A DNA stretch of 64,000 nucleotides from Candidatus Levyibacteriota bacterium (GCA_016186645.1 JACPLF010000005.1:109995-173994); one strand, 5' to 3'. Shown: positions 6,489 to 9,028, counted from the stretch's first letter. Program-made: numbers and translations. Notes: generated by a model from the sequence alone, not told the origin.

Positions 6489-7190
6489 TAGTTGTAAAAG
6501 TCGACTAAATGCTGGAAAATCCGTACCGTGATTCTGCTTTACAGAACAAACGGTTGCAGTATCTGACGCTACCATGTATTATGGTAATAATGCGATCAGT
6601 GCGGACAATCAGCAGGAAAGACTTGACGAAGAAAGAGCTAGGATTTTTCCTTGCTGGGTTTGTTGAAGGAGAAGGAAGTTTTAATGTCTCGTTACGGCGC
6701 AAGCCTGACTATAGACTCAAATGGCAAGCGGTAATGAGTTTTAATGTTTCGCAAAAAGACCCTACCTTATTAAAAATTTTAAAGGAGGAGCTAAAATGCG
6801 GAATTATTAAAACACGTAAAAGAGACAATCTATATTCCTTTGATGCAACAAATCCTAAGGATCTAATCCAGAAAGTCATTCCATATTTCAAAAAATATCC
6901 AGTTCAATCTGATTCTAAAAAGAATAATTTTTCTATTTTTTGCAAGATAGCAAAATTAATGGAAAAAGGGGAACACAGAAATTTGGCTGGATTAAGGTTA
7001 ATCCTAAAACTTCGAGAGAAAATAAACATTGGAGCAGGAAGAACAAGGAAATATGATATAGATGATGTTTTTTCTAAGTCAGGAATCCTCAGAGACTATA
7101 CGTCGACGTCCCGCTCAGCGGGACATGATATAGTCCGACCTCATGAACGATCATGAGACTCTGTAATCAATCAGAGTACCGCGATTAGCG
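6489..7190 (+). mobile_element. 23S intron 1, inserted after GTAACTATAA (E. coli ~1917); carries a LAGLIDADG homing endonuclease ORF
   Basis: The exon sequence breaks after gtaactataa and resumes with ctgttctaaggtagcgaa. The intervening sequence encodes the endonuclease. Confidence 0.7.
6509..7156 (+). CDS. LAGLIDADG homing endonuclease (intron-encoded)
   Basis: Contains LAGFVEGEGSF and a second, degenerate motif. The probable start is the ATG at 6590 (MRSVRTISRKDL...). Confidence 0.75.
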   Translation: MLENPYRDSALQNKRLQYLTLPCIMVIMRSVRTISRKDLTKKELGFFLAGFVEGEGSFNVSLRRKPDYRLKWQAVMSFNVSQKDPTLLKILKEELKCGIIKTRKRDNLYSFDATNPKDLIQKVIPYFKKYPVQSDSKKNNFSIFCKIAKLMEKGEHRNLAGLRLILKLREKINIGAGRTRKYDIDDVFSKSGILRDYTSTSRSAGHDIVRPHERS

Positions 7191-7232
7191 GGATAACAAT
7201 GTGAACTGTTCTAAGGTAGCGAAGCCCCTTGT

Positions 7233-7496
7233 CGGGTGATGGAAAAAGCCCGAAAACTGGCTTAAAACGGTGAAGCCCTACCATGTTGCATCGTACAAGA
7301 CGATGTGTAAAAATAGAGGGTGATACCGTGGGTAAGACTTTCTTTTAAAAGAGAGAACCTGTAACGACTTGTCCCGCCAAAGGCGGGACAGAGACATAAT
7401 TTTTATGTCTAATACGCCAGCATTTAGTATAGATTTCATTGGACATTATCTTTCAGGAGATGCCGAAGCCCTATAAAAATCGGGCAGAAGGACAAT
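7233..7496 (+). other. Highly divergent, shortened 23S domain IV/V segment (corresponds to E. coli ~1936-2440)
   Basis: Only loose similarity to the canonical exon sequence. The universally conserved AAGTTCCGACCTGCACGAATGG and GACGGAAAGACCCCGTGAACCTTTACTATA blocks are not found. A weak match (catttagtatagatttcattggacattat) and gtctggtgggcag follow. Confidence 0.4.
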
Positions 7497-7787
7497 GTCT
7501 GGTGGGCAGTTTAACTGGGACGGTTGACTCCTACAATGCAACGGAGTCGTACAAAGGTTGGCTAGCTCCGGATGGAAATCGGAGTGATAGTGCAAAGGCA
7601 TAAGCCAGCTTGACTGCGAGACTTACAAGTCGAGCAGGGACGAAAGTCGGTCTTAGTGATCCTCAGTAGCATAGTGGTATGCTCTGAGCTTAACGGATAA
7701 AAGCTACCCTGGGGATAACAGGCTTATCGCATCCAAGCGTTCACAGCGACGATGCGGTTTGGCACCTCGATGTCGGCTTAACACAAA

Positions 7788-8186
7788 TAGTGTTTGGGCC
7801 CTTCAGTAAATAATTACTGTTGTAAATTTGGCTAATAACGGTGGACTCCTAATTGACTAAGTAAAGTTTCTCAAGTTATGATAAAGTCAATGGACAATAC
7901 CGTGGGAAGTCGCATTTTTCAGAACACTCGGAAGACTCGGTTTTCCAGGAACATCAGAATATCTGGCTATCAGATTGTCTGAGCCTCTGGTTTACTGAGT
8001 AATAATCTGAGTTTTCTGAAATATTGTTGACCCCGTAACGACTGATTCTTTAGCAAACTAAATTGAACCCTTAGTTTGTAATAGATGAGATTCCAGTTTT
8101 TGGAATCATACGCCGAACCCCTCTCTTTTTTCAAAAAAGTGGGGGTGATGATATAGTCTACACTTCTAGTAACAGAAGATTCATGT
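7788..8186 (+). mobile_element. 23S intron 2 (ORF-less), inserted after GATGTCGGCT; it contains repeat R1
   Basis: The exon resumes with catcgcatcctggggg...gggtcgggctgttcgcccgttaaagcggtacgcgagctgggttcagaacgtcgtaagacagt. Confidence 0.65.
7921..8022. repeat. R-family MITE-like element, copy R1 (inside 23S intron 2)
   Basis: Carries the terminal motifs cagaacactcggaagactcgg and ctgagttttctgaaat shared with R2 to R5. Confidence 0.6.
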
Positions 8187-8280
8187 GCATCGCATCCTGG
8201 GGGTGGAGAAGCTCCCAAGGGTCGGGCTGTTCGCCCGTTAAAGCGGTACGCGAGCTGGGTTCAGAACGTCGTAAGACAGT

Positions 8281-9028
8281 AGACCTATAGCGTTAATTAC
8301 GCTATTAAATGAGCTGTCTATAAATCTAGCTATTTGCTGGAAACTCCGAGTATCTTCAACTACTTGACAAATGACTTATCGTAGAGATACGATATCTCTA
8401 TGTCTAGTGATAATGTTGGAAGTGCGGACAATCAGCAGGCAGCTGGGAAAGAAATTTCTAATGAGTATTTAGCAGGATTCACCGATGGTGAAGGGTGTTT
8501 CTATGTGGGATTTGGTAAGAGAAAAGACCTGCCGCTTAAATGGCAAGTAATTACCGAATTTCATGTAAGTCAAAATCCAGGCGGGAAAAATGTTTTGGAA
8601 GAGTTCAGAGAAAGGCTTGGTTGTGGCTATTTAAAGCCCAATCATGCAAAGAGCTTGAAAGACAAAACTTGGATTTTAATTGTGAAAGATAGAAAGGATT
8701 TAAAAGAAAAACTTATTCCTTTTTTTCAGCAACACAGATTGCACACAAGCAAACAAAAAGATTTTGAAATCTTTGTAAAAGTGCTTGAAAAAATTGAAAC
8801 GGGAAAGCATTTAACTAAAGATGGTTTTAAACAAATCGTTGAATTAGTTTTTGCCACTACCAGGGTAACAAATAAAAGATATTCAAAAGAATCACTTCTT
8901 TCCTAGAGCCTCAGAGACTACATGCTAGATGATGCATTGAATAGTGCGTCAAAGATATAGTCCGAACTGCATGGCGACATGTAGAGCGTATCAGAAATGC
9001 TACGTCATTCGTAAGAATGTAACATATT
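8281..9028 (+). mobile_element. 23S intron 3, inserted after GTCGTAAGACAGT (E. coli ~2595); carries a second LAGLIDADG homing endonuclease ORF
   Basis: The exon resumes with cggtctctatccagga...cccctagtacgagaggac. Confidence 0.7.
8400..8906 (+). CDS. LAGLIDADG homing endonuclease (intron-encoded)
   Basis: Contains LAGFTDGEGCFYV. It shares the 19-nt string agtgcggacaatcagcagg with the first endonuclease gene, in a different reading frame. Confidence 0.75.
   Translation: MSSDNVGSADNQQAAGKEISNEYLAGFTDGEGCFYVGFGKRKDLPLKWQVITEFHVSQNPGGKNVLEEFRERLGCGYLKPNHAKSLKDKTWILIVKDRKDLKEKLIPFFQQHRLHTSKQKDFEIFVKVLEKIETGKHLTKDGFKQIVELVFATTRVTNKRYSKESLLS

Follow-up and report, generated by a model that had tools for sequence, protein, structure and literature searches.

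Predicted group I introns at four sites of a Levybacteria-like 23S rRNA gene, one of them a truncated remnant

The stretch of DNA considered here (JACPLF010000005.1:109995-173994), analysed as one strand of 64 kb and hereafter called the window, contains a 23S rRNA gene that lies between a tRNA-Ala gene and a 5S gene and is interrupted by several inserts (Table 1). Alignment, ribozyme structure and homologous introns together make it very likely that this gene, from a Levybacteria-like bacterium, has been colonised by group I introns at sites L1917, L1951, L2511 and L2604, three of these introns being complete and the fourth a stump. Intron boundaries were set by alignment to E. coli rrlH (locus L002), by the Rfam large-subunit (LSU) model, and by the group I rule of a U at the end of the 5' exon and a G at the end of the intron. 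The sequences used for comparison include Levybacteria CG2_30_37_29 (L009), the Levybacteria contigs L004 and L005, and a set of close relatives consisting of the metagenome contigs L003 and L079-L085, of which L079-L085 are seven Joint Genome Institute (JGI) loci picked by a 24-mer from the downstream exon.

Table 1. Predicted features of the 23S locus and copies of the palindromic repeat, in window coordinates (all 23S features lie on the + strand; ORF, open reading frame)
Feature	Position	Strand	Details
tRNA-Ala(UGC)	3855-3930		ARAGORN
23S rRNA gene	4263..9440	+	ends approximate; interrupted; Rfam LSU_rRNA_bacteria matches
Intron 1, predicted complete group I, L1917	6480-7203	+	724 nt; after U1917; Rfam 27.2 bits, E 6e-4
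Intron 1 P1	6474-6479 with 6488-6493		AACUAU with GUAGUU; splice-site U.G
Intron 1 P3	6500-6505 with 7102-7107
Intron 1 P4 and P4'	6510-6515 with 6609-6614		UGCUGG with UCAGCA
Intron 1 P5 and P5'	6520-6526 with 6599-6605		UCCGUAC with GUGCGGA
HE1 gene, intron 1	6581..7156	+	single-motif LAGLIDADG_1 ORF; ATG 6581 or 6590; longest ORF from ATG 6509
19-mer, copy 1	6598..6616	+	last L5 base, P5' (GUGCGGA), J5/4 (CAA), P4' (UCAGCA), GG
Intron 1 P6	6622-6627 with 7078-7083		ORF within L6
Intron 1 R/P7; P8; S/P7'; P9; omegaG	7089-7100; 7108-7124; 7127-7136; 7140-7157; 7203
Exon 1918-1951 (E. coli)	7204..7237	+	34 nt; between the L1917 and L1951 insertion sites
Predicted L1951 group I intron remnant	7238..7465	+	5' 228 nt only; homology to the complete L1951 intron of L009
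Exon ~2203 (Rfam model position 2228) to U2511	7466..7778	+
Intron 2, predicted complete ORF-less group I, L2511	7779-8187	+	409 nt; after U2511; Rfam 38.1 bits, E 1e-7
Intron 2 P1			GGCU/UAA with UUGGGCC
Intron 2 Q-like element; R; S; omegaG	7897-7906; 8035-8043; 8150-8158; 8187		Q-like AUACCGUGGG; R GUAACGACU
Palindromic repeat copy, intron 2	7917-8024
Intron 3, predicted complete group I, L2604	8281-9029	+	749 nt; after U2604; Rfam 36.0 bits, E 5e-7
Intron 3 P1	8275-8280 with 8313-8318		GACAGU with GCUGUC
Intron 3 P3	8325-8330 with 8924-8929
Intron 3 P4 and P4'	8335-8340 with 8432-8437
Intron 3 P5 and P5'	8345-8348 with 8425-8428
HE3 gene, intron 3	8400..8906	+	single-motif LAGLIDADG_1 ORF; 168 aa; ATG 8400
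19-mer, copy 2	8421..8439	+	core elements as in copy 1
Intron 3 R; P8; S; omegaG	8911-8922; 8931-8950; 8954-8963; 9029
5S gene	9564-9681
Palindromic repeat copy, in-frame in RadA	12438-12531		adds 29 aa (SQKTQNTQHIRKSDNQKLRQSGLLSFPSVPN), not in L004/L005 RadA
Palindromic repeat copy, in-frame in 1475-aa ORF	29147-29277		peptide similar to RadA copy
Palindromic repeat copy, between two convergent genes	53522-53623

Intron architecture and the L1951 remnant

The original prediction, made from the sequence alone, had placed three introns in this gene. Three complete inserts are indeed predicted to be group I introns, and the flanking strings that had been given for them were right; the list was incomplete, however, in that the L1951 remnant at 7238-7465 was missed. 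While the site near 1917 was also correct, the other two, given as about 2500 and about 2595, lie at U2511 and U2604, about ten positions away. The search with Rfam LSU and intron models that had been proposed as a check matched the inserts to Intron_gpI (RF00028), with scores under the family's gathering threshold, and located the junctions at the quoted strings, with those two numbers corrected. The first of these corrections is of consequence, as L2511 is free of an intron in the close relatives, which have a different one at L2500.

All three complete inserts start after a U and end with a G (..UGUG in introns 1 and 2, ..AUUG in intron 3), and the U.G pair at the splice site in P1 is present in each of them and in the L1951 stump, as it is in 36/36 L1917 introns and 5/5 L1951 introns. 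Their excision would regenerate conserved 23S sequence at GUAACUAU/AACUGUUCUAAGG, GAUGUCGGCU/CAUCGCAUCC and GACAGU/UCGGUC, the ligated exon junctions being predicted to read GUAACUAU-AACUGUUC, GUCGGCU-CAUCGCAU and GACAGU-UCGGUC. At the border of intron 1, two nucleotides (AA) are assignable to either side, and the string quoted earlier, GTAACTATAA, includes them. Furthermore, an ORF-less 289-nt homologue of the L2604 intron in L003 (3836-4124) scores 66.8 bits on Intron_gpI, above the gathering score of 50 bits.

The segment that follows the 34-nt exon is predicted to be the 5' part of an L1951 group I intron. It forms a P1 (UCGGGU/GCCCGA) with the U.G pair and a P3 (CUGGC/GCCAG), and it keeps P4, P5, P6, the 5' strand of P7 (GUAACGACU, 7361-7369), two P7.x hairpins, P3' and P8, as well as the first ~22 codons of an endonuclease gene from the ATG at 7405 (MSNTPAFSIDFIGHYLSGDAE). 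Homology ends within the LAGLIDADG motif (…YLSGDAE), and P7', P9, the terminal G and the remainder of the ORF are missing. As P7' is the guanosine-binding strand, the stump would bind no guanosine and thus would not splice. Its best match, the L1951 intron of L009, is 665 nt long and comprises a 159-aa LAGLIDADG gene followed by P7', P9, the terminal G and the exon GAGUUCCGACC. When five L1951 sequences were aligned, the U.G pair of P1 was found in all five, P4 was paired in 100% of cases, and P3 was likewise paired in 100% with three of its five pairs compensatory, the variants being CUGGC/GCCAG, UCGGC/GCCGA, CCGGC/GCCGG, UUGGC/GCCAA and CUGAC/GUCAG.

Other identities for this segment were considered and rejected. 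An extremely divergent domain IV/V of the Candidate Phyla Radiation (CPR) type, covering 7232-7470, is at odds with relatives that have near-identical flanks and are normal there, and with the homology of the segment to L1951 introns. A hybrid of two introns, one at L1951 and one near 2200, was dismissed on two grounds: one L1951 intron matches the whole stump colinearly, down to the last base of the stump, and what follows the junction is ordinary exon, no different from that of relatives. Trans-splicing was rejected as the default, no 3' intron half being present before the downstream exon.

The arrangement recalls that of Coxiella burnetii, in whose 23S gene Raghavan et al. are said to have described, in 2007, a 34-nt exon between the L1917 and L1951 introns; the exon between those sites in the window is also 34 nt long. 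The adjacent pair of sites is common to both organisms (PMC4990558; PMC1995217 Table 1), as are hairpin-type intervening sequences elsewhere in the gene. The Coxiella L1951 intron carries a LAGLIDADG gene of ~157-159 aa, comparable to the 159 aa of the L009 homologue. Yet while both Coxiella introns are complete and splice, in the window the L1951 intron is a 5' stump and its downstream exon is missing.

The stump is joined, at an AAG microhomology (7466-7468), to the exon at about position 2203. Absent from the gene is therefore E. coli 1952 to ~2202, a segment of ~227 nt (2867-3093 of L003) that comprises helices 72-78 and the strand G2057-C2066 of the peptidyl-transferase centre (PTC), with A2058-A2062 and half of the PTC central loop. 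In relatives, the G2057-C2066 strand of this 227-nt exon reads ...GGACAAAAAGACCCC...; the window lacks the motif (A/G)AAAGACCCC along with its surrounding ~227 nt, and in the rest of the window neither a further LSU match nor an rRNA-embedded motif of the GGAAAGACC type was found. The exon is intact in L003, in six of the seven loci L079-L085, and also in L004, L005 and L009; L084 was left unscored, as its contig starts six bases upstream of the 24-mer match. Moreover, all nine of the other L1951-bearing loci resume the exon at 1952 after 269-709 nt. With helices 72-78 and the PTC strand lost, the 23S gene as written would not yield a working large subunit, and the gene as assembled is predicted to be non-functional. 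The description of this gene as a compact example of an intron-rich 23S thus proved not to be clean, in view of the truncated fourth intron and the missing essential exon segment.

A ribozyme core segment read by two endonuclease genes

As had been proposed, two of the introns encode LAGLIDADG endonucleases. The ORFs of introns 1 and 3, HE1 and HE3, match Pfam LAGLIDADG_1 (PF00961) with 79.4 and 71.4 bits, well above the cut-off of 23.1, and contain intact motifs (LAGFVEGEG and LAGFTDGEG) in which the acidic catalytic residue is kept. The two proteins share 34% identity from the LAGLIDADG motif onward. Both are of full length against their homologues, of which 599 were found for one family and 403 for the other, mostly from Levybacteria and Microgenomates; no exact match to the HE3 protein was found in the assembly index. 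Relatives in the PDB include the halves of I-OnuI and I-SmaMI, I-CeuI, and the dimeric 5gkk and 3e54. Homodimeric rRNA-intron LAGLIDADG enzymes (I-CreI, I-CeuI, I-Vdi141I/3e54 and 5gkk) likewise have one motif per chain of ~165-190 aa and reside in 23S introns, but they differ in their target sites, and by sequence HE1 and HE3 match best, among PDB entries, the two halves of the monomeric I-OnuI/I-SmaMI family.

The 64 kb contain just two exact copies of the 19-mer AGTGCGGACAATCAGCAGG, one near the 5' end of each endonuclease gene. The chance expectation is 0.01, and two matches were obtained in none of 100 shuffles. The claim that both ORFs contain this string in different frames was borne out: the copies are exact and lie one base out of register, the first starting at codon position 3 (..S-V-R-T-I-S-R) and the second at codon position 1 (S-A-D-N-Q-Q). 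The 19-mer corresponds to P5', J5/4 and P4', which together are known as the Q element in the classical description of the group I core, and its final GG provides the first bases of P6. The consensus for Q is approximately AAUC(A/C)GCAGG, and that for S is AAGAUAUAGUCC. Compared with the classical P/Q/R/S core (Rfam RF00028), the arrangement is canonical and without difference, as the 19-mer includes AAUCAGCAGG, which is Q, and introns 1 and 3 also possess R (UCAGAGACUA) and S (GAUAUAGUCC).

Covariation was examined in homologous introns from 73 genome loci found through the HE1 family, 36 of them L1917 and 16 L2604 introns. In the L1917 set, P4 is paired in 100% of cells with two compensatory pairs (U-A to G-C and G-C to A-U), and six of the seven P5 pairs are compensatory, one of them changing from C-G to U-A in 16 sequences. 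The covariation score was matched by 0/500 shuffles, and pairing amounted to 93%, as against 26-48% when partners were slid by 1-3 columns. In the L2604 set, P4 is invariant and 100% paired, while two of three inner P5 pairs are compensatory; here too, 0/500 shuffles matched the score, and pairing was 88.7% versus 25-53% in the slid controls. In addition, Rfam Intron_gpI aligns AAUCAGCAGG of the ORF-less L2604 intron of L003 to the P4' consensus AAuCCGCAGC, with P5' just before it. These results, together with the occurrence of the 19-mer in other genomes, establish that its sequence is held constant by the predicted ribozyme, and so uphold the view that the shared string reflects intron RNA structure and not protein homology.

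It is extremely unlikely that the identity arose instead from a recent sequence exchange within this genome, such as gene conversion or duplication. A match of 19/19 between two introns of one gene would suit an exchange, but the same 19-mer is found in 9/43 L1917 introns and 4/14 L2604 introns of unrelated genomes, and the 13-mer GACAAUCAGCAGG in 36/43 and 10/14, respectively. The identity also ends at the core boundaries, and its variable positions covary with their P5 partners. Because the 19-mer recurs in homologous introns elsewhere, its sharing is ordinary core conservation and requires no special event.

Both ORFs, whose place is the P6 loop, begin upstream of P6, in the P5 loop, so that the coding sequence takes in the 3' strands of P5 and P4. 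In HE1, the P5'/J5/4/P4' segment is read as (V)RTISRK, after which the frame continues through R, P3', P8 and S and stops in P9; in HE3 the same segment is read as SADNQQ, and the stop lies just before R. Residues R8, I10, S11, R12 and K13 are invariant in an alignment of 29 HE1 sequences. ISRK is found in 119/120 HE1 homologues and DNQQ in 117/120 HE3 homologues, and the two are never reversed. Translation of HE1 from a TTG located after the 19-mer, which would then be untranslated, was rejected on the basis of the RTISRK conservation and the ATG positions (119/120 homologues). The 3' part of the core leaves a similar imprint: L1917 endonucleases have C-termini of two types, ..GILRDYTST.. and ..QESSETIRR.., which are the R-element nucleotides CCUCAGAGACUAUACG in two frames (window 7084-7156), and many HE1 homologues end in DIVRPH(E/G)RS, the translated S element and P9. 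RTISRK, ADNQQ, SSETIR/ILRDY and the DIVRPH(E/G)RS tails are thus best regarded as pseudo-motifs imposed by the ribozyme.

Overlap of L1917 ORFs with the ribozyme core has been described in cyanobacterial introns (PMC1995217) and is drawn in Figure 2b of a review (PMC3984707). The L1917 introns of Synechococcus sp. C9 and Thermotoga subterranea (Haugen et al. 2007, PMC1995217) occupy the same site and measure 743 and 774 nt, compared with 724 nt for intron 1. As in HE1, the single-motif ORF of that family runs through P7, P3 and P8 and ends in P9. In the CPR family, by contrast, the ORF already starts within the P5 loop, which makes P5' and P4' coding too.

In the splicing pathway suggested by the mechanism of the family, the last U of the upstream exon would pair in P1 with a G of the internal guide sequence, P7 would bind a free guanosine that attacks the splice site, and the freed exon would then attack after the terminal G of the intron, regaining the conserved rRNA sequence. 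Since the complete introns have their own P1 U.G pair, P3/P3', R, S, P8, P9 and terminal G, they should self-splice by this guanosine-initiated two-step pathway, which would restore the loop of helix 69 (H69), the surroundings of U2506-U2511 and the A2602 region. The products of HE1 and HE3 presumably act as homodimers that would cut intron-less 23S alleles at the insertion site, repair of the cut allele then copying the intron in. Homodimeric cleavage of an intron-less site has been shown for one CPR enzyme, I-ShaI (PMC11270868).

It can hardly be entertained that expansion segments or intervening sequences of the RNase III type, not excised with exon ligation, account for the inserts. The insertion sites lie in universally conserved single-stranded or functional sequence (the H69 loop and the PTC), with no tolerance for fragmentation or expansion; the P1 U.G pair, terminal G, R and S are present; the P3, P4 and P5 pairs covary; and homologues attain the Rfam gathering score. 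Such an explanation could nevertheless appeal to the hairpin-type insertions that the gene does hold (4495-4589, 4635-4752 and 9215-9333) and to the Rfam scores of the window introns. The latter are among several observations that tell against the group I reading and the picture built on it. At 27.2-38.1 bits the window introns all fall under the gathering score, likely owing to their long ORF or repeat insertions, and their group I identity rests for this reason on the homologue and on covariation. P5 pairing past 4 bp is weaker in the L2604 family, and HE1 could start at 6581, 6590 or 6509, its homologues mostly starting at the position of 6590. Finally, introns and endonuclease genes that are intact and seem to be under selection are hard to reconcile with a non-functional host gene, except where the deletion is an artefact or happened very recently.

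Origin of the exon deletion

A single deletion of ~650-700 bp could have removed ~430 nt of intron together with the ~227 nt of exon. A ribosome could not function after such a loss, the locus is syntenic (23S-5S-S1-RadA) and presumably the sole 23S locus, and the exon is present in the scorable close relatives as well as in the 9/9 other L1951-bearing loci. These observations raise the possibility that the deletion and the stump are a library or assembly artefact (a chimera, a minority variant or a mis-join), and that the living genome has a complete L1951 intron and the exon; the intact allele would then carry GAGTTCCGACC.../...AAAGACCCC... beside the L1951 intron. On balance, we hold both this explanation and its expected allele to be evenly poised between right and wrong. 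The window has no excess of private exon substitutions, with 54 in domains I-IV (10-57 in relatives) and one in domain V (0-4 in relatives), and every helix of the stump is intact, implying that there has been no time for decay; both points fit either an artefact or a very recent event. Against an artefact, the junction microhomology of 3 nt (AAG) is too short for a k-mer-graph mis-join, and no repeat is common to the expected intron sequence and the exon near 2200. The gene also bears another unique lesion, a perfect 22-nt tandem duplication (GGTCCTAAGGGTGTTCCTCTTT twice, 5871-5914) in a conserved 23S stretch, which is unique with respect to five aligned relatives. A 25-mer from the intron side of the junction had no match in the first metagenome scan.

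The duplication, along with three extra hairpin insertions that are likewise unique to the gene, would also be in keeping with a real and recent deletion, in which this 23S copy has been freshly inactivated and a second copy elsewhere supplies the function. A microhomology junction is typical of illegitimate recombination, and CPR genomes usually, not always, have one rRNA copy (PMC11270868). We consider this account possible but somewhat doubtful, since relatives have a single rRNA locus, with which this one is syntenic, private substitutions are not in excess, a search of the 64 kb with the Rfam LSU model found no second LSU fragment, and the endonuclease ORFs and ribozyme cores are intact. 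It is very unlikely that the deletion is real, that this is the sole 23S locus, and that the ~250-nt segment (helices 72-78 and the A2058-A2062 strand) is provided by a separately encoded piece; if true, the bacterial 23S rRNA would here be naturally split, as the result of a deletion associated with an intron.

Other insertions, intron distribution and host

A homologue of intron 2 occupies the same site in L013 and is 82-88% identical in the ribozyme parts. In the L013 intron, the P6 region contains a 216-aa LAGLIDADG_2 gene that starts just before the Q-like element (MESMDNTVGS...), whereas in the window the slot of this gene is taken by a 108-nt palindromic repeat. Comparison of the two introns shows that intron 2 has lost its endonuclease gene, its P6 region now holding a copy of the repeat.

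This repeat, of ~100 nt with terminal inverted repeats TTCAGAACACTCGGAAGACTC...GAGTATTCTGAGTTTTCTGAA, is described as genome-wide, the count being four copies within the 64 kb (nhmmer E 1e-17 to 1e-32). Weak matches to it are also seen in the 23S intron region of L010. It resembles the Rickettsia palindromic elements; a full-text search found no paper that links that term with CPR or Patescibacteria. Present as it is in the endonuclease slot of an intron and in-frame in RadA and another protein, the palindromic repeat deserves a study of its own.

The 23S gene has further insertions of the hairpin type. Two of ~118 nt (4635-4752 and 9215-9333), which are 84% identical, cap two different 23S hairpins, one in domain I (Rfam model positions ~280-290) and the other an H98-like hairpin near the 3' end. 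Each forms a long stem closed by a 12-bp GC-rich helix (GCGUGCGUAGCA/UGCUGCGCAUGC), with folding z of about -6.6 and -7.0, and resembles an RNase III-type intervening sequence. Between the two copies, the small central hairpin differs by compensatory changes; it is similar to the hairpin native to relatives (CGCCUUUGGCG). Neither insertion occurs in L003, L079, L081, L082, L083 or L085, and there is no further copy in the window. A third element, a 95-nt perfect-stem hairpin in domain I (4495-4589; z -7.3), has 12-nt terminal inverted repeats (CCCCGTTAGAAC...GTTCTAACGGGG) and is flanked by a TAGA direct repeat (4491-4593), a signature like that of miniature transposable elements; it is absent from the close relatives.

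Of the close relatives, L003, L079 and L081 have the L1917 intron while L080, L082, L083 and L085 lack it, and the L2604 intron is found with its gene in L083 (90% identical), without an ORF in L003, and not at all in four. The L1951 intron occurs in 0/8 close relatives, the contig of L084 starting near the exon site, and the L2511 intron in 0/7 with a readable site. Conversely, the L2500 intron (after GGCACCU; ~3396-3742 of L003) is carried by all eight relatives and is lacking in the window. These introns vary in presence between near-identical 23S genes, a pattern in line with homing and loss that are active or recent. A rough regular-expression count over the sampled loci, window included, gave interruptions in 67 sequences at L1917, 10 at L1951, 28 at L2500, 25 at L2511 and 23 at L2604; L2511 is interrupted in ~24 of 59 loci with a readable site.

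Insertion sequences in CPR 23S genes were reportedly first noted by Brown et al. in 2015. Tsurumaki et al. 2024 (PMC11270868) surveyed 348 CPR 23S genes, of which 82% had insertions, and assigned 45% of the insertions to group I introns, with LAGLIDADG_1 genes concentrated at 1917, 1931, 1952, 2593, 2604 and 2657 and with ORF-bearing and ORF-less forms mixed at the same sites. The gene in the window shares with that survey the host clade, the sites 1917, 1952 (equivalent to L1951) and 2604, the single-motif type of endonuclease and the mixture of ORF-bearing and ORF-less introns, and introns 1 and 3 are essentially no different from those described there. L2511, in contrast, is absent from its main text, and its supplement has no site list containing 2511; a truncated L1951 intron with an exon deletion is not among the features it describes. 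Introns with single-motif LAGLIDADG genes at L1917, L1951 and L2604, as well as the overlap of ORF and core, are thus already documented for CPR 23S genes.

The genes around the 23S locus (1-3930 and 9700-13600) follow the order thioredoxin, thioredoxin reductase, an ORF of unknown kind, tRNA-Ala, 23S, 5S, S1 and RadA, and there is no 16S gene within the window. As the 23S-5S-S1-RadA order is common to the window and the Levybacteria contigs L004 and L005, the window appears to be an ordinary chromosomal rRNA locus. Its domain V exons are 88-97% identical to those of the Candidatus Levyibacteriota loci L035, L027, L036 and L037. The nearest 23S relatives, L003 and L079-L085, have 96-99% identity in domain V and 87-89% in domains I-IV, and the endonuclease homologues carry the names Levybacteria or Woesebacteria. 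The 23S and endonuclease relatives, together with synteny, therefore support a Levybacteria-like CPR bacterium (Microgenomates) as the host, in agreement with the CPR-like origin first proposed and with the listing of such sites in CPR (PMC11270868).

A further record, L001 (NZ_AP027616.1), was discarded as an E. coli 23S reference since no E. coli 23S landmark sequences were found in it. This 2.9-kb circular record is filed as an E. coli plasmid and holds only a 23S rRNA gene, which has neither the E. coli 23S start sequence nor the GACGGAAAGACCCCGTGAACC motif; it is probably foreign or misassembled rRNA and not a plasmid.

The original prediction had called intron-rich 23S genes a hallmark of CPR-like bacteria, and as this is already documented (PMC11270868), the intron finding as stated there matters little. 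Of greater use is the relationship between ribozyme and protein, which offers a clean worked example of one invariant ribozyme segment being read in two frames by two endonuclease families; family-specific pseudo-motifs of this sort should not pass for functional protein motifs in alignments or hidden Markov models. The L1951 remnant, for its part, carries a warning for rRNA work on metagenome-assembled genomes, as a gene such as this one would pass an rRNA annotation pipeline despite having lost part of the catalytic centre of the ribosome.

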